Made by a program: the position numbers and the translations under genes. A stretch of 64,000 nt of DNA from an uncultured Gammaproteobacteria bacterium. Its GTDB lineage: Bacteria; Patescibacteriota; Patescibacteriia; Magasanikbacterales; UBA922. The notes below the pieces were generated by a model. The model saw only the letters and a program-made list of their open reading frames with translations, did no database searches and was not told where the DNA came from. How positions within the stretch are numbered: the first letter of the stretch is position 1; each line of letters opens with the position of its first letter. Below are positions 5,348 through 63,113 of the stretch, piece by piece. The DNA is taken from assembly GCA_964435035.1 (NCBI GenBank), contig CAYSXR010000004.1, positions 676 to 64,675 on the forward strand. The letters run 5' to 3'.

Positions 5348-5362
5348 AATTTTCTAATGTTT

Positions 5363-8414: not shown

Positions 8415-8445
8415 GATCGCTAGGGTTGATAAACTATAGAACTTC

Positions 8446-8554: not shown

Positions 8555-8565
8555 TATTTTTGATT

Positions 8566-16412: not shown

Positions 16413-16415
16413 TAT

Positions 16416-22900: not shown

Positions 22901-25900
22901 GAGGAACAACGGTCTATTACCAGGTTAGGGATGCATTTGGAAATATCTCTGCAAATGGTATTATCTCATCTGCAGAGACTCCTGAAATTCCTGGAAATTT
23001 ATTTTTTAAAGATATTTCGAACTCTGATACTTTGGAATGGCGAGAATTTATTGCATGGCAAATTATTGATGATCCGACTCCTGGATTTGCACAATACGCA
23101 ATTTATCGTTCAAGCGATGGTATTAATTATACTGAAATTGCTACTCAAGTATCACGTATTATTAATTATTATCTTGATACTGATATTGATACAGGAACGG
23201 TTTATTATTATAAAGTTACTTCAGAAGATAGCGATGGTAATATTTCGGCATTTTCGACTATTGTATCTGATAATCCGAATGGAACGGGAGGAACTGATGT
23301 GTCTGCGCCGACTATTTCCAATGTTACGACGAGTTCGATTGGTTCAAATTCAATTACGATTACCTGGGAGACTGATGAAGTTTCTGATTCGTATATTGAT
23401 TATACGACTGAAGAGGGAAGTGACTTTAGTAATGTGGATACGGTAGGTCTGACGACGATGCGAAATAATGCTGCAGGACTCGGTATTCATATAGTTTCTC
23501 TCACGAATCTTGCACCAAACACGACATATTATTTCCGTGTACGATCTCTCGATCCTGATGGTAATGAGGGAATTGGCACGCAAGCTCCTAATGGATACGT
23601 ATACACGACGCTCACTGGACCGATTATTTCAGATGTTTCAACTGCTGAAATTCGAAATACTCAGGCAACAGTTACATGGAGTACTGATCAGGATAGTGAT
23701 TCGTATGTAGTTTTTTCTACCTCTTCAAGTTTTACTGCGTCTTCGACTGTAGGTTCACCTCTCACTGTGTCATCGCATGAGGTAGTTCTGCCTTCGCTTC
23801 TTCCGGGGACTACGTATTATTATTATGTTCAATCTGGGCAAGTAACTGATAAGAATACTATCGAAGGGCAGCATGAATATTATACGTTTGAAACCACTGC
23901 GGATATTACGGCTCCAGTAATTACGTTTGATTCTGGGGGAGACGTGGTTGTGTCTGATACTTCATTGGTAATTACTTTTAGCACCAACGAGACTGCAACT
24001 TCTACGATTAATTATGGTACGAGTCTTTCATATGGGTCTGTGATCGCTAATAATAATCTTAATTCTGACCACCGTTACGTATTTACTGGACTTCTTCCAG
24101 GTACTGCATACTATCTGAGTATGCGTGTTGCGGATGTTGATGGAAATATATCAAGCGCCCTTCAATTTAGTGTTACTACTACTGATAGTGCAGATTATAC
24201 TCCGCCTATCATTACGAACGTAACTTCGAGTGTGGTGACTGATGATGAAGCACTTATACTCTGGTCAACTGATGAGGGCGCTACTGGAAAAGTGTATTAT
24301 GGTACGACGAGCACGGTATACACTGAATCAAGTGATTTAGTTTCAACTTACAATCGTGAACATTTTATGACTCTCAGTGGGTTGACTACTTCAACAGAGT
24401 ATTTTTATGTAGTTGTATCAGCTGATGTAAGTGGAAATAGTAGTACTTCAACTGAGTATTCATTTACCACTCTCGAAGAATTATCTGAAGAAAGCGAAGT
24501 GCGATTGCGTGAAGAAACTGCGTACGCACAAGGGCTCGCCGATGGTACTCCACCACCAGATTTTGTGGCACCAATCATTTCGAATGTTACTTCGACGGTG
24601 GTGACTGATGATGAGGCTCTTATTATCTGGTCGACTGATGAGGGTACAACGGGACGGGTTCATTATGGTACCACTCCTTCAACGTATACTGAATCAAGTG
24701 ATTTAGTTGCTACATTTAATAGTGCGCATGCAATTACCCTTCATAATCTTACTACTTCTACGCAATATTATTTTGTTGTAGTGTCTGCTGATTCTAGTGC
24801 AAATACTTCTACTTCTGGCGAATATACGTTTACCACACTTGAAACACTCTCAGAAGAAAGTGAAGTGTTGCTTCGTGAAGAGGCTGCTCGAGCAGAGGGT
24901 GTAGTACAAGGGTCTGCAACAGTACCATCAAGTGGTGGGGGAGGAAGTTCTGTTGATCGAACACCTCCTATTATTTCTGATGTGTTGGTGAACAATATCG
25001 CCTCTGATTCTGCTACGATCAAGTGGAATACGAATGAAAATGCTAATACATTGGTAGAATTTGGAAAGACCATTGAATATGGTCGAGGCTCACTCGATCT
25101 TGAAAATGTACAAGTACATACGATTGATTTGGTTGAATTACTTCCTCTCACTACTTATTTTTATCGAATAAGCTCAATTGATACTACAGGTAATCGAAGT
25201 AGCCCAGTAACCGGATCGTTTACCACTGTTTCACTCGCTGAAGAAATTGCATCAAGTACCGAAAATATTATTGAAGATATTGCAGCAGACGAAAAAAATA
25301 CTGATGCTGCAGAGGAATTGTTTCTCTCTACTATCGAAAAAGCTGGACAAATTATCAAGAGTCTCGCTGGTCGTGTGAGTGTTGGTGTACTTGAGACATC
25401 ATTACTTGCTCAGGCACAGATTATCGAACAATTGTCTGACATTTTGCCATTACCTATTATCGGTGGACAGCCTGTAGTTGATGCAGGATCGAATTATGCT
25501 ACAGTTTCGTGGAGTACTGATAAAAATGCAAATTCATTGGTTGAGTTTGCGCCTGAAGGAGAGTTTTTGTCTGATAAGACCTATGATCAGACGGTAGGAG
25601 AGCCTACGGCTTCCCGAACTGGGCATGTGGTTGAAGTGAAAGGATTGCTTCCTGATACGGTATATCATTATCGTGTGGTTTCTCGTACACAAACGGGATC
25701 TGAAACAAAGTCTCAAGATTTTGTATTTAGAACGAAATCTCAAACTAACGAAATTACGAATTACAATGTAGTTGTTCTCTCTCCTGAAGAAGTTTCTTTT
25801 TCTTGGAATACCACGGTACCTACCGATTCTGCAGTTGTGTACACACCTTATCGAAATGGGGTACCTCAGATTGAGGCACGGCAAGTAGTACGACAAGCTG

Positions 25901-26424
25901 GACTCACTACACAGCATTCTCTTAAGGCTGTAGGATTTGAAGCAGGTGTTCTCTATGATGTTGAATTGCTTGGTACTGACACAGGAAACAATGTATCGAG
26001 TAAGGTAATTAAAGGCTTTACTACCGAAGGAGAGGATCTTGTGCCAGTGATTTCCCAGATACAGACTGATGCGGCGATTGTACCTGGAGGGAAAGAAAAG
26101 ATTCAAATTATTATTTCATGGCAGACCAATGAATTATCAACGAGTAGATTATTTTATCGTAAAGGATTTGCTGCTGATGGTACTCAATTTACCGCAAGCA
26201 CTACTCTTGATCAAAATTATACAAAAAAACATGTGGTGGTGGTTACGAATTTTGAACCGGGTACCGTCTACCAATTTGTGGTTGAGAGTATTGATTCAAG
26301 TGGTAATACAGGTATTTCAAAAACAATTACTATCCTCACTCCTCAAAAAGAACAATCAGTGTTTCAAGTCATTTTTAGTAACGTAGAAGATATGTTCTCG
26401 TGGGTCGGTAAACTTAGAAATTAG
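19918..26424 (+). CDS. Giant (2168 aa) cell-surface protein with an N-terminal TM anchor, beta-propeller-like repeats and many fibronectin-III / purple-acid-phosphatase-N-like domains
   Basis: Single 6.5-kb ORF. TM segment LAVVSQAVFCFVFIRLGMLIF. Repeated I(T/S)W(E/S)TDE...YY(F/Y)RV FN3-like units. Internal near-identical tandem repeats. Confidence 0.8.
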   Translation: MVKFKKNKQKLVKSQSRNSNSKWDFAAYWVWHELLLSYGRLRKTTKTRTAKKELNALGKQIMRHYVKNFVYFPVWLFKFLTPSYLKGPVNVWTNLRTILRSSEFRPLRLAVVSQAVFCFVFIRLGMLIFYNLSTPADAATFGWIQTTWTGGVSTTVAATHSSDRTGWTTYASSTQVNTTVSSGNITIATSSYITTDDSTLSTDGLASGGGFANGVTSSVVVNGGDVTLGIASAGGEINQWDATPYNLPATISGTEDGNGVMVTDGVDAFYILRGGGTTGFYKFIPSDKTTSTLTSVPTSIPPNGGGGTVALSGDYIYLYSGGNSNVKFYAYSILGNSWTTLTNPPSSPYGDGIGSTMAVDASGNIYFAAGGATTNFLKYTVTSSAPYGAWSVLSSIGNSVGRGSRAIYDSENNDILILTGNNGHTISKYDIDLGTMTNYAGAPNDPGFTSGASMVKNDDNDIVYAITGQNYAWLERLNLNSGTWASRQTSSTPAAGNTVGYMIHKPGENRIYTTFGGTSFYYLRPQQGDWQFTTTTKPIPGSIGAGATMIRHNNDEIYVLAGGGSSAIYRFAINAGTQYTATGTLTSATIDLKYATSTRISWSSSAHGQTGSNPVKFQVAANTDNATWSYVGPDGTSGTYFTSSNTALPGSLNGKRYYRYRAYLTTANTSFTPTLSSVTFTYHSYLTSGSLASNPFNAEDDTNVLAAVSWAGSVPAGTVIKFQVRTSPDNAVFTSWMGPDGTSGTYFTDSSGAQTMPALLTDGEDDRWIQYKVFFESDGTGTPILEQSTLTYVVNAPPEITITNTVSTTSSGVVVVNYDVRDIDSATGATPGVVAVALQYCTASCSSVGNEVWATAVTSSLSGTFGSSVAVDTVSTTQYTSYSLTWTPTSSYNNQYNGSNFKIRLRANDSEAANNIGVDESNTFVLDTTDPLPSIIIDGRSIATSTLSISVTDDTMAGLEMKLSNDSDLSSDGLNGSSGTWIPYTTTSTWNLGTGGTTVYYQVRDAFGNISANGIISSAETPEIPGNLFFKDISNSDTLEWREFIAWQIIDDPTPGFAQYAIYRSSDGINYTEIATQVSRIINYYLDTDIDTGTVYYYKVTSEDSDGNISAFSTIVSDNPNGTGGTDVSAPTISNVTTSSIGSNSITITWETDEVSDSYIDYTTEEGSDFSNVDTVGLTTMRNNAAGLGIHIVSLTNLAPNTTYYFRVRSLDPDGNEGIGTQAPNGYVYTTLTGPIISDVSTAEIRNTQATVTWSTDQDSDSYVVFSTSSSFTASSTVGSPLTVSSHEVVLPSLLPGTTYYYYVQSGQVTDKNTIEGQHEYYTFETTADITAPVITFDSGGDVVVSDTSLVITFSTNETATSTINYGTSLSYGSVIANNNLNSDHRYVFTGLLPGTAYYLSMRVADVDGNISSALQFSVTTTDSADYTPPIITNVTSSVVTDDEALILWSTDEGATGKVYYGTTSTVYTESSDLVSTYNREHFMTLSGLTTSTEYFYVVVSADVSGNSSTSTEYSFTTLEELSEESEVRLREETAYAQGLADGTPPPDFVAPIISNVTSTVVTDDEALIIWSTDEGTTGRVHYGTTPSTYTESSDLVATFNSAHAITLHNLTTSTQYYFVVVSADSSANTSTSGEYTFTTLETLSEESEVLLREEAARAEGVVQGSATVPSSGGGGSSVDRTPPIISDVLVNNIASDSATIKWNTNENANTLVEFGKTIEYGRGSLDLENVQVHTIDLVELLPLTTYFYRISSIDTTGNRSSPVTGSFTTVSLAEEIASSTENIIEDIAADEKNTDAAEELFLSTIEKAGQIIKSLAGRVSVGVLETSLLAQAQIIEQLSDILPLPIIGGQPVVDAGSNYATVSWSTDKNANSLVEFAPEGEFLSDKTYDQTVGEPTASRTGHVVEVKGLLPDTVYHYRVVSRTQTGSETKSQDFVFRTKSQTNEITNYNVVVLSPEEVSFSWNTTVPTDSAVVYTPYRNGVPQIEARQVVRQAGLTTQHSLKAVGFEAGVLYDVELLGTDTGNNVSSKVIKGFTTEGEDLVPVISQIQTDAAIVPGGKEKIQIIISWQTNELSTSRLFYRKGFAADGTQFTASTTLDQNYTKKHVVVVTNFEPGTVYQFVVESIDSSGNTGISKTITILTPQKEQSVFQVIFSNVEDMFSWVGKLRN
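24193..24890 (+). repeat. Tandem duplication of two roughly 366-bp units (about 80% identical) inside the giant protein gene
   Basis: PPIITNVTSSVVTDDEALILWSTDEG...SEESEVRLREE versus APIISNVTSTVVTDDEALIIWSTDEG...SEESEVLLREE. Confidence 0.8.
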
Positions 26425-26632: not shown

Positions 26633-26722
26633 ACATTGATTCAAACAGATTAATACAGATTACACAGATAGATGTATTTGTATTTTCAGTTTAAATCCGT
26701 TTGAATCAGTCTAAATCAATGT
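26633..26722 (+). repeat. Family B structured leader element, copy B2, between the T-box terminator and the glyS ATG
   Basis: ACATTGATT...TCAGTTTAAATCCG...AATCAGTCTAAATCAATGT; ends 3 nt before the ATG. Confidence 0.65.
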
Positions 26723-26725
26723 TGT

Positions 26726-28036
26726 ATGTCTCAAGATACCATGGAAGCTCTTATATCATTATGCAAACGTCGAGGTTTTGTTTTTCCTGGGAGTGAAATT
26801 TACGGGGGTCTTGCTAATGCATGGGATTACGGTCCATTGGGTGCGCAGATGAAGAAAAATATTAAAGACTTGTGGTGGAAGCAATTTGTTGAAAGCAGGA
26901 TCGATATGGTTCCCTTTGATGGAGCAATACTTATGAATCCAAAAGTGTGGGAAGCGAGTGGGCACGTGGCAACCTTCAATGATCCATTAGTTGAATGTAA
27001 AAATTGTCATGGTCGTTTTCGAGCTGATCAGGTGGATATTTCCAAAAATTGTCCAACCTGTGGAAAAAAAGATTGGACCGAAGCTAAACAGTTTAATCTG
27101 ATGTTTAAAACGTCCATTGGTCCCTCAGAAGAAAGTGCTAATACGGTGTATCTTCGTCCAGAAACTGCCCAGGCAATGTTTGTAAATTTTAAACAGGTTG
27201 CAAATACGAGTCGAAAAAGACTTCCTTTTGGAATTGCACAAATTGGAAAAGCATTTCGTAATGAAATTACGCCCGGGAATTTTATTTTCCGAACACTTGA
27301 ATTCGAACAAATGGAAATTGAATATTTCATTGAAGAGAATGAGTGGGAAAAATTGTTTGAAAATTGGTTGAAAGATACCTATTCTTTTGCTCGTGCATTG
27401 GGAATCAAAACGGATCTTATGCATGATTTGGAAGTTCCTGAAGATGAACGAGCACATTATTCCAAACGCACTGTTGATATCATGTTTGATTTTCCCTTTG
27501 GACAGAAAGAGTTGTGGGGTCTTGCGTATCGTGGGGATTATGATTTGCGTCAGCATGAAGCACACTCAAAACAATCTCTGGAATATACGGATCCTCTCGA
27601 TAATAAACGAAAAATAATTCCGCATGTGATTGAGCCTTCATTTGGAGTAGATCGAACATTGCTTGCTGTTCTCGTATCTGCATACGAAGAGCAATTGGTA
27701 AAAGAAGGGGATACACGTGTTGTGTTACACCTGAAGCCGGCAATCGCTCCCTATCATGTTGCCGTATTGCCACTCATGAAAAAAGACGGACTTGCTGAAA
27801 TTGCACAGACATTACACTCTGAGTTATTGAAATATTTTAGAGCAGATTATGATGAATCGGGAAGTGTGGGAAAACGGTATCGAAGACATGATGAAATTGG
27901 AACTCCGTTTTGTGTCACAGTGGATTATGAATCAAAAGATGATAATTGTGTCACCGTTCGCGACCGTGATACAATGACGCAGGAGCGGATGAAGATTGAG
28001 GATTTACCTGAGTTTTTGCGAGGAAAAATGATTTAG
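26726..28036 (+). CDS. glyS: Glycine--tRNA ligase (class II, alpha2 type)
   Basis: LCKRRGFVFPGSEIYGG...GPLG class II motifs; about 436 aa. Confidence 0.85.
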   Translation: MSQDTMEALISLCKRRGFVFPGSEIYGGLANAWDYGPLGAQMKKNIKDLWWKQFVESRIDMVPFDGAILMNPKVWEASGHVATFNDPLVECKNCHGRFRADQVDISKNCPTCGKKDWTEAKQFNLMFKTSIGPSEESANTVYLRPETAQAMFVNFKQVANTSRKRLPFGIAQIGKAFRNEITPGNFIFRTLEFEQMEIEYFIEENEWEKLFENWLKDTYSFARALGIKTDLMHDLEVPEDERAHYSKRTVDIMFDFPFGQKELWGLAYRGDYDLRQHEAHSKQSLEYTDPLDNKRKIIPHVIEPSFGVDRTLLAVLVSAYEEQLVKEGDTRVVLHLKPAIAPYHVAVLPLMKKDGLAEIAQTLHSELLKYFRADYDESGSVGKRYRRHDEIGTPFCVTVDYESKDDNCVTVRDRDTMTQERMKIEDLPEFLRGKMI

Positions 28037-28050
28037 TTATAGATAAAATT

Positions 28051-28160
28051 AAATTATTCTAATTATACTAATTAACCTAATTGTTTTAACACTCATAATA
28101 TAGGTTGAAAGAATGTATACGTTTAGGTAAATTAGAATAATTAGAGTACTTAGAATAATT
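28051..28160. repeat. Family A iteron palindrome, copy A3
   Basis: AATTATTCT, AATTATACT, AATTAACCT ... AGGTAAATT, AGAATAATT, AGAGTACTT, AGAATAATT; ends 9 nt before the ATG at 28169. Confidence 0.7.
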
Positions 28161-28168
28161 TTTTACTT

Positions 28169-29428
28169 ATGTACGAACGATATAATCTCCACAATGGAGC
28201 AGAAGTGTGTCTAGTTCCTATCAAGGATGCACAGTCAACGACTGTTCTTATTATGTATCCTGTTGGTTCACGCTATGAATCATTTAAATTGAATGGAGTG
28301 TCACATTATATTGAACATCTTTTTTTCAAAGGTACTAAGAAGCGTCCAACGACTTTGAAGTTGACTAGTGAAATTGATCGACTTGGTGCCGAGTATAATG
28401 CATTTACGAGTAAAGAATATACAGGATATTATATTAAAGCAGCAGGAAATTTTCTTGAAACTTCGCTTGATATTCTTTCAGACATGCTTTTCAATTCACT
28501 GTTTGATGCGCGTGAAATGGAGAGAGAGAAGAAAGTAATTGCTGAAGAAATCAAAATGTATAATGATAATCCACTGATGCATATTGATTCAGTGTTTGAA
28601 AGTTCGCTCTATAAGGGCAGTCCTCTTGCGTGGGATATTGCAGGAACGGTAAAGCATGTACAAGAATACAAGCGTGAGGATGTGTTGAAGTATCGTGATA
28701 CGTATTATGATGCAAGTGCAATGAAGATTGTGATTGCAGGTGCGATGAATGCTGAAACGAAAAATTTGATTGAAAAATATTTTGGTATACCTGCAACCAA
28801 GAAAAAAATGAAAAATGTGTATAAACCAATGGTCTATGGTTCAACCAAGCGAGAAGATCGATTGGTGATTGATCATAAAACTACTGACCAGGTGCAGATG
28901 ATGCTTGGGTTTCCCTCATTTTCACATACGGATGAGAGGTTGCATGCTCAGACAGTCATGAATACTATTCTCGGAGGATCGATGAGTTCACGTTTGTTTA
29001 TTCAGATTCGCGAACGCAGGGGATTGGCCTATATGGTGCGCTCAGGATCGGATCAATTCCGTGACACGGGTTATACGTTTGTTCGCTCAGGCCTTGAAGC
29101 GACAAATATTAATAAAGCACTTGACGTTATCAAAAATGAAATTGAAAAAATGGTCGAGAAGGGTGTAACCAAGAAAGAGTTAGAAGATGCTAAGACTCAT
29201 ATCAGAGGATCATTTACCCTTTCTCTTGAGGATAGTAGTATGCAGGCGAATTATTATGCACGCCATTTATTATTCCAGAAAAATATTGAAACTCCTGAAG
29301 AAATACTTTCAAAAATCGATGAGGTTACACATGATGAGATCAAAGCGGTGGCGAAGAAATTATTCAATTGGAAACAAGCGCGGCTTGCGATTATTGGAAA
29401 TACTGATGAGTCGAAGATTAAGTTCTAG
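28169..29428 (+). CDS. M16 family zinc metallopeptidase (pitrilysin/insulinase-like)
   Basis: Inverted zinc motif HYIEHLFFKG (HxxEH). Confidence 0.8.
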   Translation: MYERYNLHNGAEVCLVPIKDAQSTTVLIMYPVGSRYESFKLNGVSHYIEHLFFKGTKKRPTTLKLTSEIDRLGAEYNAFTSKEYTGYYIKAAGNFLETSLDILSDMLFNSLFDAREMEREKKVIAEEIKMYNDNPLMHIDSVFESSLYKGSPLAWDIAGTVKHVQEYKREDVLKYRDTYYDASAMKIVIAGAMNAETKNLIEKYFGIPATKKKMKNVYKPMVYGSTKREDRLVIDHKTTDQVQMMLGFPSFSHTDERLHAQTVMNTILGGSMSSRLFIQIRERRGLAYMVRSGSDQFRDTGYTFVRSGLEATNINKALDVIKNEIEKMVEKGVTKKELEDAKTHIRGSFTLSLEDSSMQANYYARHLLFQKNIETPEEILSKIDEVTHDEIKAVAKKLFNWKQARLAIIGNTDESKIKF

Positions 29429-32900: not shown

Positions 32901-33358
32901 TACACTATGTCGTGTAGCACTTCGTCTGCATGTATTTCAGGTTTTACATTTTCGTAGTGTTTGAGAATAGTGCCCTCAGGACTGATGAGAAATGATTCTC
33001 GAACTATTCCCATATTTTTTTTACCAAACATTTCTTTCTCTCTCCATACTCCATATGCACTAATTACTTTTTTTTCAGGATCAGCGAGGAGCGGAAAATT
33101 TAAGTGAAATTTTTTAGCAAATTTTTTGTGTGACTCTATGTCATCAGCACTTACACCTAAGACTTGTACGTTTTTTTCTTTGAGTTCATTTAACCTGTCT
33201 TGAAAATTACACGCTTCGGTGGTGCAGCCAGGTGTGTCGTCTTTGGGGTAGAAATAGAGGAGTACATATCTGCCTGCATATTCTGCAAGACTGTGTGTGG
33301 TGCCAAATTGATCCTGGAGCGTGAAGTCAGGGGCTGGTGAATGGAGTGGGGGAGTCAT
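32900..33358 (-). CDS. bcp: Peroxiredoxin (Bcp/thiol peroxidase, AhpC/TSA family)
   Basis: FYPKDDTPGCTTEAC active-site motif. Confidence 0.85.
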   Translation of the reverse strand: MTPPLHSPAPDFTLQDQFGTTHSLAEYAGRYVLLYFYPKDDTPGCTTEACNFQDRLNELKEKNVQVLGVSADDIESHKKFAKKFHLNFPLLADPEKKVISAYGVWREKEMFGKKNMGIVRESFLISPEGTILKHYENVKPEIHADEVLHDIV

Positions 33359-33383
33359 ATAGTATTGATTTAGATTGATTAAA

Positions 33384-33453
33384 AATTGATTATGCAGATT
33401 AAAGAATATGTATTTTCAGTCTAAATCATAATTTAATCTGTTTGAATCAATGT
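33384..33453 (+). repeat. Family B element, copy B3 (degenerate)
   Basis: ATTGATTATGCAGATT...TCAGTCTAAATCA...AATCTGTTTGAATCAATGT; 50 nt upstream of the next ATG. Confidence 0.5.
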
Positions 33454-39252: not shown

Positions 39253-40698
39253 ATGGAACACACACCACAAACTTTAAGTTTTGATAACCTCGGACTTGCT
39301 CCGAAAATCGTCGACATTTTGATGCAGAACAAATTTACTCAGCCAACTCCGATTCAAGCGAAGTCTATTCCTGTTGCACTCGAAGGAAAAGATATGGTAG
39401 GAATTGCTCAGACAGGCACGGGAAAGACTCTTGCTTTTGGATTACCAATGATACAACGATTGTCACAGTTGAAAGCTCAAGGTCTTGTACTTGTTCCTAC
39501 TCGCGAGTTGGCATTACAGGTAGAAGAAACCATTCGAAAAATTGGTAATAGTTTTGGTCTCAAAACCACCGTGGTTATTGGAGGAGCTTCGATGCATATG
39601 CAGGTGAATGAGCTTCGTCGCAATCCGCACATTATTGTAGCAACTCCTGGGCGACTCGCTGATCATCTCGAACAAAAAACAGTAACGCTTGATCGTATTA
39701 AGGTGGTCGTGCTTGATGAAGCTGACCGTATGTTTGATATTGGATTTGCACCGCAAATCAAGCGCATTTTGTCGCTTACACCGAAAGATCGTCAGACACT
39801 TCTTTTTTCTGCAACCATGCCTGCTGAAATTGCAAAAATGGCATCACAACATATGAAATTGCCACTTCGAATCGAAGTTGCTCCACAAGGAACGAGTTCG
39901 GCAAATGTTGAGCAGGAAATTTTTATTATTAGCAAAGAACAAAAATTACAATTACTTCAGAAAATGCTTGATGATAACAAAGGAACTGTACTCGTGTTTT
40001 CCCGAACCAAGTTTGGAGCAAAACGAATTGCCGCTTCTCTTCGTCACATGAAGCACACTGCTGTTGAAATTCATTCGAATCGTACACTTGCACAGAGAAA
40101 AGCGGCATTAGCTGGATTCAAATCTGGTCAGTATCGTATTCTTGTTGCAACTGACATTGCTGCGCGTGGAATTGATGTAACGGGAATTTCACTCGTTATC
40201 AACTTTGACTTACCGGACAATTCTGAAGATTATGTACACCGTATTGGTAGAACAGGTCGAGCTGGAATGAGTGGTAAAGCAGTTTCTTTTGTAACACATC
40301 AAGAAAAATCACAAATTAGACAGATTGAGAGATTGATCAAAAAGTCATTGCCTATTATTGGACTTCCTACTCTTCCTCCACGAATTGAAGTTCCTCGGGA
40401 AGAGAATAGACCTGAAAGAGGATATGGACGTCCTTATCGAGGTGGACAAGGCGGGGGTCAGGGTCGTGAAGAAAGAAGTTTTGGGGGTGGTAATAATAGT
40501 CAGAGACGAAATCGAACTCATCGATATGGCAACAATCGCCCACGACCAGAAGGTGACCGTGGTGGTAGTTCAGGAGAGAGACCAGCGTACAATCGTGGAC
40601 CACGTACCGAAGGTCAGTCGAGTTCTGACGGTTCTCAGCAACGATCATTTCAGCGCACTTTTCGAAGACCTACACGTCCTCAGAGTACACAAAACTAA
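39253..40698 (+). CDS. DEAD-box ATP-dependent RNA helicase with a C-terminal Arg/Gly-rich tail
   Basis: Q-motif, AQTGTGKT, PTRELA, DEAD (VLDEADRM), SAT, HRIGRTGR; RGG-rich C-terminus. Confidence 0.9.
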   Translation: MEHTPQTLSFDNLGLAPKIVDILMQNKFTQPTPIQAKSIPVALEGKDMVGIAQTGTGKTLAFGLPMIQRLSQLKAQGLVLVPTRELALQVEETIRKIGNSFGLKTTVVIGGASMHMQVNELRRNPHIIVATPGRLADHLEQKTVTLDRIKVVVLDEADRMFDIGFAPQIKRILSLTPKDRQTLLFSATMPAEIAKMASQHMKLPLRIEVAPQGTSSANVEQEIFIISKEQKLQLLQKMLDDNKGTVLVFSRTKFGAKRIAASLRHMKHTAVEIHSNRTLAQRKAALAGFKSGQYRILVATDIAARGIDVTGISLVINFDLPDNSEDYVHRIGRTGRAGMSGKAVSFVTHQEKSQIRQIERLIKKSLPIIGLPTLPPRIEVPREENRPERGYGRPYRGGQGGGQGREERSFGGGNNSQRRNRTHRYGNNRPRPEGDRGGSSGERPAYNRGPRTEGQSSSDGSQQRSFQRTFRRPTRPQSTQN

Positions 40699-40722
40699 TG
40701 AGGGTACATACTTGACTTTATA

Positions 40723-40756
40723 AGTAACCTGGTATACACTAGGTTACTTTTTAATT
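40723..40756 (+). terminator. Rho-independent terminator after the helicase
   Basis: AGTAACCT-ggtatacact-AGGTTACT followed by TTTTAATT. Confidence 0.6.
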
Positions 40757-40832
40757 GATGCTATTCTTTTGGATTTATCTGAATCTAGAGGAGCTGGATC
40801 AATAGTCGAGCATCAACCAAAGGAGTTTTTAC

Positions 40833-41342
40833 ATGATCAAGTTCATTCTCGTCCTCTTCGCGTGTATCCTCGCATCCTGTGGTTCCACCGTCCCGTTCGA
40901 GAAGTACCAGAAGCTTCAGGCAGATCAAGATCAGCGGATTAGACGTGCACTCGATGCCTTCGAACAGATCCAGCGTCGCTTGCTGAAGCAAGAGCTGACT
41001 TTCTATGTGCGTCAGGGTGGCACAGGGGGAGTGCTGTACGAGTTCATGCCGGTCGCGGACAAGGATATTCTCAGACCTCTTTCGAAGCTTGGTCCTGCGA
41101 CGAAGGGGCCTGTGCGTTCCGATATGATCGTGACAGTGCGGTCAAGCGAGCGGCTGAATGAAGTCAATCCCAATCTCTCCTACTGTGTTTTCGAGGTGAG
41201 TCTCTGGAAGATTAAGGGGCGAGAAGTCATTCATGTGGATCGTTCTGAGGAGTCGGGTGCGTCGCCTCCGTGCAATCCTGAAGAGAAGATTGAACGTCTG
41301 GACTACTCCGGCACCAAGCTCCAGACCATCATCTGGTTTTGA
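40833..41342 (+). CDS. Lipoprotein on a high-GC mini-island (probable horizontal acquisition)
   Basis: Signal peptide with lipobox ILASC; GC about 55% against about 38% in the flanks; strong SD AAAGGAG 8 nt upstream, unlike neighbouring genes. Confidence 0.6.
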   Translation: MIKFILVLFACILASCGSTVPFEKYQKLQADQDQRIRRALDAFEQIQRRLLKQELTFYVRQGGTGGVLYEFMPVADKDILRPLSKLGPATKGPVRSDMIVTVRSSERLNEVNPNLSYCVFEVSLWKIKGREVIHVDRSEESGASPPCNPEEKIERLDYSGTKLQTIIWF

Positions 41343-41404
41343 ACAACCCCGACGCCTCGCGCCGACTGTTACGACACGGTGCGATCGCGTCGGGAACAGT
41401 TTAT

Positions 41405-41438
41405 CCTACACTAGAAATAGTGTGGGGTTTTTGTTTTT
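41405..41438. terminator. Bidirectional terminator between convergent genes
   Basis: CCTACACTA-gaaa-TAGTGTGGG followed by TTTTTGTTTTT. Confidence 0.6.
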
Positions 41439-42507
41439 AGCCGAATAATCGTTTAAAGAATCCTGAAATTCTGGCTGGTTTTTTGGGCGGATTTGGTTTT
41501 GGAGGATTTTCTATCTGAGCGTTTTCCTCTCCTGGTTGGGGTACTATATCAAGACGAAATAAACCAGGTATAGTATCATCCCTCTCAAGATCAAGTATTT
41601 GAGTTTTTGTGAGAGATTGTATTTCTGCTTTGAATGCCTGTTCTATTGCATCGAGCAATATTCCTTTTTCTTCTTTCCATTTTTTATTCATCTCATTTCT
41701 AGATGTGGGATCGAGTTTTGTAATTTTAGCTTCAAATTCTTCTTCTTTTTTTGAAACGGGGGGTTTGAGGAATTTAGTGTATGTTTTTAATAACTGGTCG
41801 GTTACTAAACCAATAAGCATGTCCCGTTCTTCATTATTATTTCTATCAGACACATTCAGTGCACCTGTAATTTTTATTTTTGCGGCATAATATTCATGTA
41901 AGTTTTGTTGTATAACTTCTTGTATTTTTGTGAATTTATCAACACCTCTGTTGGCTGCACGTTTGAAAATATCGTTATTTGTATACTTCTTTATATTTTG
42001 CAATATGTCATGCATTTCACCTACTAATTCTAAGATGTACTCATCTCGTTCACTGGTATCATTTTCATTTGTTTTATCACCTGTGCCTTTACTTTGTTTT
42101 TCTCGTAAGTCATGAGTTATTGCTAATTCAATTTCAGCATCACTGCCATGTACGAGAGAGGTTAATGTTGTAGGTGTATCTTTGATGAGACTATCATCGA
42201 TGTTTCTTAGAACCACAGTTATGATATCTTCATAATCGGGTGGAAGATTATTTGGGGTGGTGTCTTGGTTTTTTTGTCTGCGACCTGGCTCACTTGCTAG
42301 CATTATTTTTTCTGCAATTGCATCAAGTGTATCATGTTTTTCTAGAAATATTCTATCGATATCTCCCAGTATTTTTTGCTGTGTGTCACTAGGAAGTTGT
42401 TCTAGTATTTTTTGTATTTTTTTTTTGGCATTTTGTAGAATAGTGTCTTTTTCATGGACTTCCTCCATTATTTCTTCTGTTGAGTGTATATTTTGACTTG
42501 TTTCCAT
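41437..42507 (-). CDS. Hypothetical acidic, Lys/Glu-rich coiled-coil protein
   Basis: 356-aa ORF, low complexity, C-terminal PKPNPPKKP; no motif recognised. Confidence 0.45.
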   Translation of the reverse strand: METSQNIHSTEEIMEEVHEKDTILQNAKKKIQKILEQLPSDTQQKILGDIDRIFLEKHDTLDAIAEKIMLASEPGRRQKNQDTTPNNLPPDYEDIITVVLRNIDDSLIKDTPTTLTSLVHGSDAEIELAITHDLREKQSKGTGDKTNENDTSERDEYILELVGEMHDILQNIKKYTNNDIFKRAANRGVDKFTKIQEVIQQNLHEYYAAKIKITGALNVSDRNNNEERDMLIGLVTDQLLKTYTKFLKPPVSKKEEEFEAKITKLDPTSRNEMNKKWKEEKGILLDAIEQAFKAEIQSLTKTQILDLERDDTIPGLFRLDIVPQPGEENAQIENPPKPNPPKKPARISGFFKRLFG

Positions 42508-42601: not shown

Positions 42602-43960
42602 ATGTCCAAACAAAAAACATTTTCAGAAGCTTATATTGTTACTGTCGACATGGGATATGGTCATCAGCGTGCAGTGCACCCATTGCGAGATATTGCCGCG
42701 TCTCCTGTAGGATGGCAGAATGTGGATATTATCACAGCTAATAATTATGGCGGAATTCCTAAGAGTGATAGTCTCAAGTGGGAGAGTAGCCGCAAAGTCT
42801 ATGAGTGGATATCGCGTCTCAAAAAAGTACCACTGATTGGTCCTCTATCGTTCTCTATCATGGATTATATTCAGCGGATTGATCCTTTTTATCCTAAGCG
42901 TGATTTGTCTCGACCAACCCTTCAGGTCAAAGAAATGTATCGAATGATTGAGGAAGGGTGGGGGAAACACCTGATTGAAACTCTTAATCAGAAACCATTA
43001 CCATTGCTTACTTCTTTTTTTGCTATTGCTTTTTTTGCTGAAGAACATGGATATCAAGGTGAAATATATTGTTTGTGTACAGATACTGATATTAGTCGTG
43101 CATGGGCACCACTTGATCCGAAGACAAGTAGAATCAAATATTGTGCTCCAAATAAACGAGTAAAACAACGACTTTTGCATTACGGTGTTCCTGAGAAAAA
43201 TATTTTTGTAACAGGGTTTCCTTTACCAAAAGAAAATACGGGAACAAAAAATTTAAAAACACTTAAACAATCTTTGGGATGTAGGGTCACCAATCTTGAT
43301 CCAAATTTACGGTATCAACGAAAGTATGAGTCTACGATTGAATCATATTTAGGTGCTCGCTATTGTAGTCGTGACCATGAACATCCATTGACTATTACGT
43401 TTGCAGTGGGTGGAGCAGGAGCTCAGCGCGATATTGGTATCACCATACTCGAAAGTTTGCATGAACATATTGATACAGGTAGGGTAAAATTGAATTTGGT
43501 TGCTGGATCACGTAATGATGTGTACGTGTATTATGAGAATAAAGTGAGAGAATTGCATCTCAATGAAAAACATTCGGGAATGATTAATATCATTTATGAT
43601 GCACAAAAGATGGGATATTTTGAGAAATTCAATGAAGCACTTCTGACGACTGATATTCTCTGGACTAAACCAAGTGAACTTTCTTTTTATGCTGCTCTGG
43701 GTATTCCTATTATCATAGCCCCTTCGATTGGTTCTCAGGAAGATTATAATCGAGCGTGGCTCCACTCAATTGGTGCTGGATTTGAGCAAGAAGATCCACG
43801 GTATACTCATCAATGGCTTTTTGATTGGCTTGAGTCTGGCTGGCTTGCTGAGGCTGCTGTAAGTGGTTTTTTGCATGCTCCTAAAAATGGAGCGTATCAC
43901 ATCGAAGAAGTTGTGCTGCGAGGAAAACGCAGCGAAATTGAAGATGTTCATCTTTTGTAA
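42602..43960 (+). CDS. GT28-family glycosyltransferase (MurG / diacylglycerol glycosyltransferase-like)
   Basis: N-terminal VDMGYGHQRAV (G-x-G-H motif of MurG/UgtP) and central FAVGGAGAQ. Confidence 0.55.
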   Translation: MSKQKTFSEAYIVTVDMGYGHQRAVHPLRDIAASPVGWQNVDIITANNYGGIPKSDSLKWESSRKVYEWISRLKKVPLIGPLSFSIMDYIQRIDPFYPKRDLSRPTLQVKEMYRMIEEGWGKHLIETLNQKPLPLLTSFFAIAFFAEEHGYQGEIYCLCTDTDISRAWAPLDPKTSRIKYCAPNKRVKQRLLHYGVPEKNIFVTGFPLPKENTGTKNLKTLKQSLGCRVTNLDPNLRYQRKYESTIESYLGARYCSRDHEHPLTITFAVGGAGAQRDIGITILESLHEHIDTGRVKLNLVAGSRNDVYVYYENKVRELHLNEKHSGMINIIYDAQKMGYFEKFNEALLTTDILWTKPSELSFYAALGIPIIIAPSIGSQEDYNRAWLHSIGAGFEQEDPRYTHQWLFDWLESGWLAEAAVSGFLHAPKNGAYHIEEVVLRGKRSEIEDVHLL

Positions 43961-47148: not shown

Positions 47149-47236
47149 ACATTGATTACGCAGATTAATATGGATTTAAACAGATTGGATATAATTTTTT
47201 CAGTCTAAATCCGTTTTAATCTGTTTAAATCAATGT
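47149..47236 (+). repeat. Family B structured leader element, copy B4
   Basis: ACATTGATT and AATCAATGT outer stem. GATTTAAACAGATT pairs perfectly with AATCTGTTTAAATC (14 bp). Ends 3 nt before the uppP ATG. Confidence 0.7.
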
Positions 47237-47239
47237 TGT

Positions 47240-48040
47240 ATGACTATACTTCAGGCAATTGTTCTCGGTATTGTACAGGGTCTATGTGAATTTTTGCCGA
47301 TTTCTTCATCAGGGCACTTGATTTTAGTACCCGTTATTTTTGGGTGGGATGTGCAAGATCAATCATTTGATATTGTGCTGCATGTTGCGACATTGGTTGC
47401 AGTTGTACTTTTTTTCCGCACTACGGTCGCACGAATTTTTCGAGCACTTATTCATTTTAAGCAGCCTACCGTAGATCGAAATATAGGATTTGCGGTTATT
47501 ATTTCAACTATTCCTGCTGCGTTTGTGGGATTATTATTTGGGAATAAAATTGAATCTGCATTTCGATCGCCTCAGTCAGTTGCAATTAGTTTGATTCTTG
47601 GTGCGGGCATACTATTTGTAGCAGATCGTTACATTCATCATCGTCACGAAACACATCCTATTTCTAAAATTACTTTTCGTAATGCAATGGTGGTTGGGTT
47701 TGCACAAGTCTTGGCTTTTGTTCCTGGTATGAGCAGATCAGGGGTGACGATCTCTGCAGCGTTATTACAAAATTTTTCAAAGACTGCTGCTGCAGAATTT
47801 TCATTTTTAATGAGTATTCCTATTATTACTTTGGCTGGAGCTTCAGCTTTGAAGGATATGGTGGGCACAGGGGGGATTACCTATGGAATACCGATTTTGA
47901 TTGTCGGCTTTATTGCGGCCATGCTTAGTGGGCTTTTCTCTATCTGGCTTACTCTTACCGTGATACGAAAAGTGAGCTTTATTCCTTTCGTTATTTATCG
48001 GATTATTATTGCGGGAGTTATTATAGCGTTGTTTGTTTAG
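47240..48040 (+). CDS. uppP: Undecaprenyl-diphosphatase
   Basis: GLCEFLPISSSGHL and PGMSRSG motifs. Confidence 0.9.
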   Translation: MTILQAIVLGIVQGLCEFLPISSSGHLILVPVIFGWDVQDQSFDIVLHVATLVAVVLFFRTTVARIFRALIHFKQPTVDRNIGFAVIISTIPAAFVGLLFGNKIESAFRSPQSVAISLILGAGILFVADRYIHHRHETHPISKITFRNAMVVGFAQVLAFVPGMSRSGVTISAALLQNFSKTAAAEFSFLMSIPIITLAGASALKDMVGTGGITYGIPILIVGFIAAMLSGLFSIWLTLTVIRKVSFIPFVIYRIIIAGVIIALFV

Positions 48041-48356: not shown

Positions 48357-50009
48357 ATGAGCACACCTGCACAACTGTCTACAGTCAAACCTTGGTACAA
48401 AAAGAAATGGATCTATATAGTGGGAATTATTGTTCTTCTTGTCGGGGGCTATGTTTTTTCACAGTCACAAAAACAAAACAAAGGACCTTCGTATGAGACT
48501 TTTGTAGTTGAACGAGGGACGTTAACTCAGACTGTTGATGCTTCGGGAAACGTAAAATCAGCAGACGAACTTGATTTACGTTTTGAATCCAGCGGTCGAA
48601 TCGCAAAAATTTATACCGAGATTGATGCGCAAGTTCGTGCAGGAGCATTATTAGCTGATCTAAATTTGAGTGAAGTTAATGCTCGAATTGGGGAGGCAAG
48701 TGCTGGTGTAGGACAAGCTCAGGCTAATTTGTCCCAGATCAAAGCTGCGGGACAGGATGCAATTACGAATGCCAAAGCTGCTGTTGAAAAAGCACTGATT
48801 AATTTGAAATTATCTGAAGGTGGAATGAATAGTGAAATTGTTCGAGATACGTATAATGATGCTTTTGCGCTCATGGTACAGATTCAAGCAACCGTGTCTC
48901 AAGCAATCACGGCGGTTGATAATATTTTGGGCATTGATAATGAATTTGTAAATGATGTGTTTGAAACACAGCTTGGTGTTCAGAAACCAAGTACACTTAT
49001 TTCTGCTCGCAATCAATACCTACTTGCAACCATTGATCAAAATGCTTTTGATGCAAAAGCAAATTCGCTTTCTCTCGCTTCTTCTCAGGCTGATATTGAT
49101 GCGGCGATTATGGTGGCTGATAAAGTACTTACTTCTACCAAAGATTTATTGTATCAGGTTTCTGAAGTTCTTAATACATCGCCAGCAGTTGGTGGTTTGA
49201 CTCAGACTCTTCTTGATACAATGAAATCTTCGATTTCTTCTGAACGTTCTCTTGTTACGGCTAAACTCACTTCTCTTATTTCGCAGAGACAGGCAATTCA
49301 GGATGCAAAAAATAGTTATACTACAAATAGCGTTCTTTATGAACAAGCAAAACAGAATTTGATTAATGCGGAGAATAAGGCTGTGGCAGATGTAGCTGCG
49401 TATGAAGCGTCTATTCGATCTTCGCAAGCATCAGTTGGTGCAGCGGTTGCTAGTCGGAATAAATCTCGTATTGTCGCACCGATTGCAGGTAAGGTTGCTA
49501 AGGTGGCATTTAAGCCAGGTGAATTTGTAACGAGTCAAGATGCGGTGATAAAGCTTGTAAGTCCTCGTTTTGAAGTCAAAGTGGATATCCCAGAAACTGA
49601 TATTGTAAAAATTGCGAACGGAGTTTCAACTACAGTGACGCTTGATGCGTATGGAAATGATGTAAAATTTACTGGAGTGGTAACTGAAATTGAAACGGGT
49701 GAAACAGTGATACAAGATGTGGTGTATTATAAAGTTACCGTAGTACTTGAAGAAAAAACTGAATATCAGATATTAAATGGTATGACTGCTGACGTAATGT
49801 TCTTTACTGAAAATAAAGATAATGTTCTCTTTATTCCTCAACGAGCGATTCGTTCTGAAGATGTCAAAAAAATGGTTCGTATTCTTGAAAATGGACAAGT
49901 CCGTGAAGTGGAAGTGGTTACCGGACTTCGAGGAGATGATGGATTGATTGAAATTGTGTCTGGACTTGAACCAGGTCAGGAAATTGTAATTCGTGAGAAA
50001 GCGGAGTAG
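48357..50009 (+). CDS. Periplasmic adaptor / membrane fusion protein (HlyD/MacA family)
   Basis: N-terminal TM, long coiled-coil, beta-barrel and lipoyl-like motifs (RIVAPIAGKVAKV). Confidence 0.75.
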   Translation: MSTPAQLSTVKPWYKKKWIYIVGIIVLLVGGYVFSQSQKQNKGPSYETFVVERGTLTQTVDASGNVKSADELDLRFESSGRIAKIYTEIDAQVRAGALLADLNLSEVNARIGEASAGVGQAQANLSQIKAAGQDAITNAKAAVEKALINLKLSEGGMNSEIVRDTYNDAFALMVQIQATVSQAITAVDNILGIDNEFVNDVFETQLGVQKPSTLISARNQYLLATIDQNAFDAKANSLSLASSQADIDAAIMVADKVLTSTKDLLYQVSEVLNTSPAVGGLTQTLLDTMKSSISSERSLVTAKLTSLISQRQAIQDAKNSYTTNSVLYEQAKQNLINAENKAVADVAAYEASIRSSQASVGAAVASRNKSRIVAPIAGKVAKVAFKPGEFVTSQDAVIKLVSPRFEVKVDIPETDIVKIANGVSTTVTLDAYGNDVKFTGVVTEIETGETVIQDVVYYKVTVVLEEKTEYQILNGMTADVMFFTENKDNVLFIPQRAIRSEDVKKMVRILENGQVREVEVVTGLRGDDGLIEIVSGLEPGQEIVIREKAE

Positions 50010-50016
50010 GTCATAC

Positions 50017-50135
50017 ACATGAATTCAAATTATTCTAATTATACTAATTGATCTAATTATTCTAAGGGTCTGTAGTGAGTTAGAAATATTATATATTTTG
50101 AATTTTTTAGAGTATTTAGGTTAATTAGAATAATT
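50017..50135. repeat. Family A iteron palindrome, copy A4
   Basis: AATTATTCT, AATTATACT, AATTGATCT, AATTATTCT ... AGAGTATTT, AGGTTAATT, AGAATAATT, AGGAATTCT. Confidence 0.7.
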
Positions 50136-50151
50136 AGGAATTCTTTCTGTT

Positions 50152-53630: not shown

Positions 53631-54860
53631 ATGATGTTTAAAGATTTATTTACGATTGCATCGGGAGCATTGCTCAGACAGAAAATGCGCACCATTCTTA
53701 CGGTGGTGGCGCTTAGTATTGGTATTGCGTCAGTTGTTATTATTGTTTCTGCAGGTAGAGGATTGGAATCAATGGTTCTTGGTGAATTGGATGTGTATAG
53801 TCCAAACACCATGAATGTCGAGGTGCGTGTCCCCGGTAAATCGGGTGGGGGCATGACGAGTGGAATCACTATTACCACTCTCAAAAATTCGGATATGGAA
53901 GCTCTTATGAAGCATCCAAATATTTCTCTTGCGTATAGTTATGTCACTAGTCAACAAGTTATTAAATATCGTGAAGAAAATCAGACGGTGACTGTATTTG
54001 GATATGGTGCATATGCTGCTGAAGTAGATAATGTAAAAATTTTAGAAGGAAGATTTTATACACCTGATGAAGAAGCATCCTTGGCACAAGTGGTATTTAT
54101 TGGATCAAAAATAAAAGAAGATTTTTTTGGTGATGACACTGCTATTGGTAAAAATATTTTTATCAAAGGAAAATCATTTCGTGTAGTTGGAGTCCAAGAA
54201 CCAATGGGTGCCTCATTTGGGTTTGATATGGATAGTGTCGTCTATATGCCAACTGAGACACTCCAGAAACGTTTTTTGGGTACGGACTATGTGATGGGGA
54301 TTAATGCACACGTGATTGATATGAGTCAGCTTGATTCTACCAAAGAAGATGTGGAAATGCTACTTCGTGAAAGACATGATATCACTGATCCAGATAAAGA
54401 TGATTTTGAGGTCGCTACCATGGATGAGATTAGAGACACACTTGAAACCGTAGTAGGTGGAATCACCTTACTTCTGATTGCTTTGGTATGTATTTCACTT
54501 ATTGTGGGTGGAGTTGGGATTACGAATATTATGTATGTGACAGTCTCTGAGAGAACGTTTGAAATAGGACTTCGTAAATCGCTGGGTGCTAAGTCACGAG
54601 ATATTTTATTACAATTTTTAATCGAAGCCATGCTCCTTACTTCCATGGGGGGTATCGTGGGGGTAATTTTTGGAGTATTAATTTCATATCTTGTATATCT
54701 TATTGCGACTAGTGTGGGGCTTAATTGGGTTTTTGCTGTACCATTGTATGCCGTGGTACTTGCGATTGGTTTTTCAACTACGGTAGGTTTGTTTTTTGGG
54801 CTCTATCCAGCAAAGAAGGCTGCACGGCTCAATCCGATCGAGGCATTAAGAAAAGAGTAA
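53631..54860 (+). CDS. ABC transporter permease, MacB/FtsX type (second paralog)
   Basis: Same architecture; about 35% identical to the upstream permease by eye. Confidence 0.8.
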   Translation: MMFKDLFTIASGALLRQKMRTILTVVALSIGIASVVIIVSAGRGLESMVLGELDVYSPNTMNVEVRVPGKSGGGMTSGITITTLKNSDMEALMKHPNISLAYSYVTSQQVIKYREENQTVTVFGYGAYAAEVDNVKILEGRFYTPDEEASLAQVVFIGSKIKEDFFGDDTAIGKNIFIKGKSFRVVGVQEPMGASFGFDMDSVVYMPTETLQKRFLGTDYVMGINAHVIDMSQLDSTKEDVEMLLRERHDITDPDKDDFEVATMDEIRDTLETVVGGITLLLIALVCISLIVGGVGITNIMYVTVSERTFEIGLRKSLGAKSRDILLQFLIEAMLLTSMGGIVGVIFGVLISYLVYLIATSVGLNWVFAVPLYAVVLAIGFSTTVGLFFGLYPAKKAARLNPIEALRKE

Positions 54861-54863
54861 ATT

Positions 54864-54963
54864 GAAATTATTCTAATTGTACTAATTGACCTAATAATTC
54901 TAAAATTTAGAATTATTGAAATTTTTTAGGTTAATTAGAATAATTAGAGTACTTAGAATAATT
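54864..54963. repeat. Family A iteron palindrome, copy A6
   Basis: AATTATTCT, AATTGTACT, AATTGACCT, AATAATTCT ... AGGTTAATT, AGAATAATT, AGAGTACTT, AGAATAATT. Confidence 0.7.
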
Positions 54964-54973
54964 TCTCCTTCTC

Positions 54974-63082: not shown

Positions 63083-63113
63083 AAAATCACCCTTATCGGG
63101 TGATTTTTGTTTT
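63083..63113. terminator. Bidirectional Rho-independent terminator
   Basis: AATCACCC-ttat-CGGGTGATT followed by TTTGTTTT. Confidence 0.75.

Follow-up and report, generated by a model that had tools for sequence, protein, structure and literature searches.

A GC-rich accessory gene for a predicted surface lipoprotein is shared by divergent Candidatus Magasanikbacteria

The Lpp protein of Escherichia coli is a small, abundant lipoprotein made from a monocistronic mRNA that is stabilised by a hairpin and has a strong Shine-Dalgarno (SD) sequence. A gene of similar layout is described here from 64,000 nucleotides of DNA (the window; positions 676 to 64,675 of contig CAYSXR010000004.1, assembly GCA_964435035.1), which are named for an uncultured Gammaproteobacteria bacterium and assigned by GTDB to the Patescibacteriota (Magasanikbacterales, UBA922). 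The gene, at 40833-41342 on the + strand, is predicted to encode a lipoprotein of 169 amino acids. Like the genes of small lipoproteins it forms a monocistronic unit, here called the cassette, with its own promoter, a strong SD, stem-loops on its 5' and 3' sides and an intrinsic terminator. Like lipoproteins processed by Lgt and LspA, its product has a hydrophobic N-terminal signal ending in L-A-S-C. It differs from the described lipoprotein families in belonging to none of them; the Lpp/OprI model of NCBIfam matched at E 0.12, below the cut-off, and covered only the signal peptide and the helix. The original prediction for this locus was a recently acquired single-gene cargo with a role at the host interface. 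With a probability of roughly 0.55, we regard the gene instead as an old, clade-restricted accessory gene for a surface lipoprotein, with foreign-like codons, that has been kept GC-rich by a maintaining force or by allele replacement.

Transferred ORFan islets of atypical composition are expected to drift toward the composition of their host, a process termed amelioration (Lawrence & Ochman 1997, as cited in a passage of PMC12455944). The cassette resembles such islets in its accessory spread, in having homologs only within a narrow clade, and in codons and GC content at third codon positions (GC3) that are not those of the host. GC is 0.533 and GC3 0.635 in the lipoprotein gene, against about 0.39 and 0.29 in the host. 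The cassette differs from ameliorating islets in that the anomaly is found in three species whose neighbouring genes are near synonymous saturation, at or above the bound expected for neutral drift. A recently acquired islet is also expected to lack an ortholog at the same locus in relatives, and orthologous cassettes occupy the same locus in two related genomes, L006 and L046.

Base composition was examined across the 51 long open reading frames (ORFs) of the window. The region contains one clean ORF, with GC of 0.58, 0.39 and 0.635 at the first, second and third codon positions. The adjoining ORFs have GC of 0.34-0.43 and GC3 of 0.23-0.28. When the two ORFs of a second GC-rich island are set aside, the other window ORFs have GC3 of 0.22-0.42, mostly about 0.29. 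Because the lipoprotein ORF stands so far above this value, its GC excess lies at synonymous positions. In a scan with 510-bp sliding windows the lipoprotein gene formed the sole peak above 0.50 outside the first 4.3 kb. Codon usage is foreign-like and resembles that of the second, defence-type island. The fraction NNG/(NNA+NNG) is 0.79 in the cassette gene, 0.64 in the second island, which encodes a HamB-like helicase, and 0.24-0.32 in native genes, including those for ribosomal proteins. C and G are each raised at third positions of the cassette gene, and third-position A is depleted in all three orthologous genes (0.06-0.12). Three independent run assemblies of the window locus (L001-L003) are 100% identical to the window across 3.3-12.7 kb, so the GC-rich island is not an assembly chimera or artefact.

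The SD, AAAGGAG at 40819-40825 (+), lies 7 nt 5' of the ATG. A strong SD precedes just 2 of the 51 long ORFs, and any GGAG, GAGG or AGGA is found upstream of about 4 of the 51. All three orthologs have an SD ahead of the start codon, AAAGGAG in the window and L006 and AAAAGGAGAG in L046; the three fall in different columns of the multiple alignment, and those of the window and L006 were read directly. The single GC-rich gene, its strong SD beside neighbours that mostly lack one and its classic lipobox, all part of the original prediction, are therefore borne out by the sequence.

Related loci were collected by scanning species-representative genomes with the neighbouring DUF6938 protein as query. 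The scan gave 80 loci, and the entries with specific names are mostly Candidatus Magasanikbacteria, of the candidate phyla radiation (CPR, or Patescibacteria). The nearest by DUF6938 protein (94-80% identical) are L004, L005, L046, L006, L044, L007, L008 and L009, which have in common the gene order bipA, DEAD-box helicase, a variable slot, DUF6938 and EamA, with other genes between. Orthologs of the lipoprotein gene were found in the variable slot of L006 (1961-2482, 173 amino acids) and L046 (8366-8836, 156 amino acids). All three copies have the DEAD-box helicase gene on one side and genes resembling hyp356 (for a 356-residue protein) and DUF6938 on the other. The proteins are 19-30% identical in pairwise comparison, with BLASTP E values of 3e-10, 5e-8 and 0.018. 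They share the motifs F..R....G...Y, IVT, YCV, W, EE and C-N, and both the L006 and the L046 protein have a hydrophobic N-terminus. Both ortholog genes are GC-rich (GC 0.51 and 0.53; GC3 0.603 in L006 and 0.694 in L046) in genomes of about 41% GC.

Relatives outside this clade were not found. A word-indexed search of 5.8e9 proteins and an exhaustive HMMER search of 1.8e9 representatives returned the lipoprotein itself only, and a profile built from the three proteins returned the same three from the protein databases and nothing further. The lipoprotein has no match in Pfam, PHROGs, NCBIfam, PADLOC, PDB sequences or viral contigs. Two candidate homologs were rejected. P0002, a 2438-residue repeat/SLH protein (HMMER E 8e-4, 31% identity in the top-scoring segment, query residues 55-106), was judged a summed-repeat artefact, and a 225-residue protein in the same slot of L009 is a YceI-domain protein with host-like GC.

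A neighbor-joining tree of DUF6938 and EamA was built to place the nine loci. Its topology is ((((window, L004), L005), L044), (L046, L006)), with (L009, (L008, L007)) outside. Only the window, L046 and L006 carry the cassette, and they are not a clade in this tree. It is missing from the closer relatives L004, L005 and L044, with the terminator retained in L004 and L005. The gene is accessory, and this pattern requires either a single gain with three losses or a degree of lateral transfer among clade members.

The divergence of the carriers shows how long the anomaly has been in place. Between carrier species 62% of four-fold degenerate sites differ in the neighbouring genes, where saturation is at about 0.71, and synonymous divergence (dS) is 1.1-3.2. 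The four-fold sites of the cassette itself differ at 0.67-0.94, from a small number of sites, and the proportion of nonsynonymous differences (pN) is 0.51-0.59. Nonsynonymous divergence (dN) between copies is 0.84-1.16 for the lipoprotein and 0.06-0.16 for its neighbours. Because the neighbours are near synonymous saturation, neutral drift since a single acquisition should have removed most of the GC excess. A simple F81-type model, in which each lineage keeps about 0.35 of ancestral synonymous states, gives a present-day GC3 of about 0.55 from an ancestral value of 1.0 and about 0.48 from 0.8. The observed values are 0.60-0.69. This bound counts against one old import followed by drift alone, although it falls short of proof. 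Recent acquisition is contradicted by homologs of the same GC (GC3 0.60 and 0.69) that occupy the same locus and share the promoter, leader, SD and 3' hairpin, a finding that the original prediction itself named as one that would overturn it. The copies are synonymously saturated, and the searches turned up no donor lineage, no mobility gene and no phage relative.

The present/absent unit is about 690 bp long (40705-41400, +), comprises the promoter, leader, coding sequence (CDS) and 3' hairpin-1, and is missing as a block in L004 and L005. These bounds were drawn because L004 and L005 pass from the helicase stop codon almost straight into the ortholog of the terminator hairpin; the covariance-model match in L004 is restricted to model positions 55-93. 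Among the three loci the CDS is the least conserved part, with pairwise nucleotide identity of 0.38-0.46, against 0.50-0.66 for the 5' region and 0.69-0.79 for the 3' region.

On the 5' side, a promoter scan scored the sigma-70-type promoter TTGACT-17-TACACT (40712-40740, +) at 9/12, and CTTGAC with a TAnnnT -10 element at 17-nt spacing is kept in 3/3 orthologous loci. A hairpin followed by a T-run lies at 40722-40756 (+; stem 40722-40749, 12 pairs, -15 kcal/mol, z -5.2 relative to shuffled sequence). Its sequence is not conserved in L006 and L046, each of which has its own hairpin at that place, and it is probably the terminator of the helicase transcript. The terminators said to bracket the gene are present as hairpins with T-runs on both sides, but the upstream one sits inside the gene's own promoter spacer. 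The leader stem-loop TTGAT...GGATCAA (40754-40803, +) is predicted in all three orthologs with invariant sequence blocks. Covariation in this stem-loop is weak, with 1 compensatory pair and several broken pairs.

On the 3' side, GC-rich hairpin-1 of the 3' untranslated region (3'-UTR) spans 41348-41394 (+; -31.3 kcal/mol, z -5.9). It is conserved in three loci and contains the invariant CGCGTCGGGAACAGT. The intrinsic terminator, hairpin-2 with a T-run, follows at 41403-41438 (+; stem 41403-41428, 11 pairs, -14.8 kcal/mol, z -4.7). Its stem is maintained across species by 5 compensatory pairs, as expected of an intrinsic terminator. It is common to the convergent downstream gene, and orthologs are also present in the cassette-less L004 and L005. 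The count of a crude terminator scan was at chance level (3 found, 3.2 expected). This arrangement resembles known 3'-UTR stem-loop and terminator modules, with a conserved GC-rich hairpin followed by a U-tailed terminator hairpin, and with a sequence conserved above the CDS. It differs from described mRNA-stabilising elements and 3'-UTR-derived small RNAs in that hairpin-1 has no Rfam family and occurs with the cassette only. In Rfam 15 the only window matches that reached the gathering score were tRNAs, and nothing below E=9 fell in 40650-41480. A covariance model found hairpin-1 nowhere else in 1.34 Mb of related DNA. One extra full-length covariance-model match, in L032 (E 0.17), was rejected as an unrelated two-hairpin region after a different gene. 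A metagenome DNA scan with the invariant 14-mer CGCGTCGGGAACAG was also discarded; it gave at least 120 chance matches, nearly all in GC-rich contigs, and none had the extended motif. The single string shared by the flanks of the cassette is the 8-mer TACACTAG, which lies in both flanking hairpins (40733-40740 and 41407-41414, 674 bp apart). The pair is probably due to chance, since L006 and L046 have no equivalent repeat.

The signal peptide and lipobox ILASC are encoded at 40833-40880 (+). The protein begins MIKFILVLFACILASC and continues GST, that is, a hydrophobic signal sequence (MIK-FILVLFACI-LASC) leads to L-A-S-C, whose Cys, residue 16, is the predicted lipidated first mature residue. 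The window protein matches the lipobox pattern [LVI][ASTVI][GAS]C after a hydrophobic h-region. It is a plausible exported lipoprotein. Residues invariant in the three proteins are F57, R60, G65, Y69, IVT99-101, YCV117-119, W125, EE139-140 and CN147-148. The invariant C118 and C147 are compatible with an extracytoplasmic disulfide. The structure model of the L006 ortholog (pLDDT 66, pTM 0.61; both are model confidence scores) is built of a signal helix, then a long helix and a five-strand antiparallel sheet, with a disordered tail. The nearest structural neighbours are Type IV pilins and pseudopilins and the TraT-type surface-exclusion lipoproteins, which likewise have a long N-terminal helix on a small antiparallel sheet and a conserved Cys pair toward the C-terminal end. 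The resemblance to these proteins is one of topology only, as there is no sequence similarity. The protein is not a Type IV pilin, since it has no class III (prepilin) signal and its helix is charged rather than hydrophobic. Taken with the rate of evolution and the lifestyle attributed to CPR bacteria, the signal peptide and the Cys pair make a putative role at the surface or host interface the most likely reading.

Under the favoured explanation the cassette would be a self-contained monocistronic accessory gene of a small Candidatus Magasanikbacteria clade. The sigma-70-type promoter would give an mRNA with a leader of about 85 nt that contains a stem-loop, followed by the SD, 169 codons, the GC-rich 3' hairpin and the intrinsic terminator. 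Beyond the signal peptide and its lipobox Cys, the product would have one long helix followed by a small sheet of antiparallel beta-strands with a single conserved Cys pair, and it would be exported and lipid-anchored on the cell surface. The ectodomain may evolve very fast because it faces a variable partner, whether a host cell, a phage or a competitor. Because codon usage looks foreign, horizontal transfer is the probable route by which the clade gained the gene; entry would predate the divergence of the three carrier species, and the gene would later have been lost in at least three lineages. GC3 may have outlasted neutral drift through sequence selection or GC-biased repair, or else through periodic allele replacement. 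The persistent GC could thus stem from a force that maintains it, from alleles replaced out of an unsampled pool, or from an extreme donor with incomplete amelioration.

Several observations weigh against this explanation. A Cys is aligned at the lipobox position in both orthologs, but their boxes, CSAC and TFNC, are atypical of Lgt/LspA lipoproteins. The canonical lipobox is confined to the window copy, and a positive N-terminal charge is lacking in two orthologs. Neither Lgt nor LspA turned up among the scanned window ORFs or in a motif search of the related loci. The structure model of the window protein itself is poor (pLDDT 46). All cassette comparisons rest on three sequences, those of the window, L006 and L046, so arguments from covariation, dN/dS and the tree are weak. 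The amelioration bound is crude near saturation; its error spans about 0.47-0.60, and an extreme donor GC3 is only marginally excluded.

Repeated allele replacement was considered as an explanation in its own right and is judged credible but unlikely. It proposes that divergent alleles circulate in, and arrive from, a reservoir of higher GC that has escaped sampling, whether in other bacteria, on plasmids or in phages, with the conserved 5' and 3' non-coding arms serving homologous recombination, so that GC is reset and the allelic lineages are very old. Non-coding flanks far better conserved than the CDS, GC3 that in each of the three lineages equals or exceeds the neutral bound, three roughly equidistant copies and a patchy distribution all fit this proposal. 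So does the fact that hyp356 is equally fast-evolving with host-like GC, hence the anomaly is specific to the cassette interior. Against it, neither 5.8e9 proteins nor viral contigs yielded a reservoir sequence, and the 3' element is present nowhere else in the 1.34 Mb of related DNA. The 5' arm resembles the host in being AT-rich. The window population is clonal, with no allelic variants seen.

Local mutational or repair bias, for example through GC-biased gene conversion at a hot spot of recombination or through targeted hypermutation, would account for high GC and fast evolution together and would make them signs of neither foreign origin nor sequence selection; we find it doubtful. In its favour, the helicase-DUF6938 slot is a hot spot for indels, both C and G are raised at third positions, and protein divergence is extreme beside that of the neighbours (dN 0.84-1.16 against 0.06-0.16). 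However, the adjacent hyp356 lies in the same hot spot and is equally divergent, yet it is AT-rich (GC3 0.17-0.29). For this reason neither fast evolution nor a locus-wide hot spot explains the GC. The 5' leader inside the unit is likewise AT-rich and conserved. The window has no template repeat of the gene, and there is no reverse transcriptase among the called neighbours.

A recent single-gene import that still has the GC and the SD of its donor is improbable. Its appeal is plain: GC3 and codon usage are foreign-like, an SD stands out in an SD-poor genome, the cassette is missing from the closest sampled relative, L004, in which flanking proteins are 93-96% identical, and the window also holds another, genuinely foreign-looking GC-rich island. 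These points are outweighed by the same-site orthologs in L006 and L046 with their shared promoter, leader, SD and 3' hairpin, and by copies that are 19-30% identical in amino acids and synonymously saturated. The databases searched (5.8e9 proteins) hold no donor homolog. No mobility gene, flanking tRNA or clear target duplication was seen; the nearest tRNA is 2.2 kb away, and a repeat scan found no flanking repeats. That the ORF is no protein gene at all, and is a chance frame in non-coding RNA or structural DNA, is very improbable: GC-rich DNA in an AT-rich genome does yield long spurious ORFs in several frames, and the flanking RNA hairpins are the best-conserved parts, but the frame is open in three species with an SD and ATG, a signal peptide, an aligned Cys and protein motifs at about 40% nucleotide identity, the GC excess is concentrated at position 3 (0.58/0.39/0.64), folding z-scores of the CDS are inconsistent (+0.4, -1.9, -2.8), and there is no Rfam match.

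Other causes and vehicles were tried and rejected. Native translational selection does not account for the GC, as ribosomal-protein genes have no NNG preference (0.24 against 0.79). RNA structure across the CDS was set aside because of the same inconsistent z-scores. A diversity-generating retroelement was dismissed with no template repeat in the 64-kb window and no reverse transcriptase among the called neighbours at the three loci. The cassette is not an integron gene cassette, being a single unit with its own promoter and housekeeping neighbours, whose 3' hairpin occurs with the lipoprotein gene only in 1.34 Mb.

GC-rich genes and SD use were also surveyed across the clade. Among 1191 ORFs of the 80 loci and the window, 60 have GC3 more than 0.2 above the local median. 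An SD-like motif precedes 68% of these GC3-rich ORFs and 15% of native ORFs (Fisher p 2.5e-19), the former figure being somewhat inflated by GC-rich upstream sequence. A second small GC-rich orphan family occupies the interval from bipA to the helicase gene in two sister species, L046 (6330-6671, -) and L008 (4591-4956, -). Its proteins ('MQQEESMA...') are 113-121 amino acids long and 56% identical, with GC3 of 0.82 and 0.71, a four-fold difference of 0.60 and no Pfam match. Because this family stays GC-rich across species, persistently GC-rich small genes recur in the clade. A further position noted with this family is L206 513-761. The L046 member adjoins an 82-residue GIY-YIG protein, and the family is absent from the window. 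SD-preceded, GC-rich (GC3 0.60-0.79) lipoprotein-like small genes were also seen in more distant Magasanikbacteria, at L049 9132-9530 (-), L018 9086-9718 (+) and L070 916-1611 (+). Two of them are directly upstream of DUF6938, and none is detectably homologous to the lipoprotein family. A recurrent hot spot for GC-rich genes upstream of DUF6938 in distant relatives was considered and found unconvincing (about 9 cases, about 6 expected at the overall density of such genes); none of those genes is homologous to the lipoprotein.

Within the window, a gene of native composition at 63112-63552 (-) has a perfect AAGGAGG; it encodes a 146-residue coiled-coil protein with sub-threshold Lpp- and XhlA-like matches. 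The Hsp20 gene at 58677-59123 (+) has a weaker SD. Because a native gene has a perfect SD, SD pairing seems still to work for a few genes, and these data suggest that SD-led initiation is reserved for few genes in this genome. The anti-SD motif has gone undetected in about half of Parcubacteria (PMC9297842). The 3' end of the 16S rRNA is not present in the window or the related DNA examined. A bolder proposal, which we would back only at long odds, is that some Magasanikbacteria maintain, for as long as neutral sites take to be fully replaced, a class of small genes that are GC-rich, poor in third-position A and often SD-led, in genomes where SDs are otherwise hardly used. The lipoprotein cassette would then be a member with a dedicated expression regime (RNA hairpins, possibly a 3'-UTR-derived small RNA, and atypical codons) for a hypervariable surface protein that interacts with hosts or phages.

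The genes beside the cassette define the slot. The left anchor is the DEAD-box helicase gene (39253-40698, +; Pfam DEAD/Helicase_C), whose orthologs in L004-L009, L044 and L046 are 74-96% identical. The right anchor is the DUF6938 glycosyltransferase-like gene (42602-43960, +; Pfam DUF6938). Between the cassette and DUF6938 lies hyp356 (41437-42507, -), a convergent gene for a K/E-rich protein with no Pfam or PADLOC match. Its orthologs in L004, L006, L009, L044 and L046 are 25-32% identical, 239-358 amino acids long and of GC3 0.17-0.29, and none is present at the L005, L007 and L008 loci. Since both hyp356 and the lipoprotein gene vary in presence, the slot between helicase and DUF6938 is a variable hot spot.

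The second, larger GC-rich island occupies window positions 1-4300, directly upstream of rplJ/rplL, and contains ORFs 24-737 and 741-3863 (GC 0.57-0.59, GC3 0.58-0.62). Its helicase of 1040 amino acids matches Hachiman HamB models (PADLOC E 1e-37, partial coverage), and its full-length homologs, at 36-52% identity, number in the hundreds. A handful of these are named and come from Proteobacteria, Planctomycetes (Phycisphaerales) and Acidobacteria (Bryobacteraceae). The 237-residue ORF upstream of the helicase has no family match and may run off the window. The island looks like a horizontally acquired defence module. In the window rplJ-rplL (4343-5299) is not preceded by rplK-rplA, and the GC-rich island is there instead. 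Some Parcubacteria are reported to have no uL1 (PMC9297842).

Intergenic arrays of 9-bp units (TTAGAATAA / TTAGAGTAA / TTAGGTTAA) in inverted pairs are found at five sites, 5338-5465, 8422-8560, 28026-28173, 50002-50145 and 54840-54965 (repeat families D1-D3 and I1-I18). Other short tandem or inverted intergenic repeats lie at 16373-16421, 26683-26731, 47197-47245, 33352-33440, 11995-12031/29480-29516 and 13040-13111/34304-34376. The repeat CAGTTTAAATC..AATCAATGTTRT extends as far as the start codon in several genes, namely those for RRF, a class II tRNA synthetase and BacA. These short intergenic repeats could serve as lineage-specific 5' signals in a genome where SDs are hardly used. An ORF at 19918-26424 (+) encodes 2168 amino acids with repeated fibronectin-III and purple-acid-phosphatase-N-type domains and has internal DNA repeats; the product is probably a giant surface protein.

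At face value the lipoprotein is an ordinary accessory lipoprotein ORFan. The cassette nevertheless shows that the equation of atypical GC plus an SD with recent transfer can mislead. Its anomaly is common to species whose neutral sites have turned over, which runs counter to the expected drift toward host composition and points to an untested compositional force, or to an unsampled gene pool, in CPR bacteria. Attachment to host cells is the presumed way of life of these bacteria, and, to our knowledge, very little is known of their surface molecules. A clade-specific, very fast-evolving, apparently strongly expressed, predicted surface lipoprotein with conserved RNA hairpins is a candidate for work on the interface of CPR bacteria with their hosts and phages.

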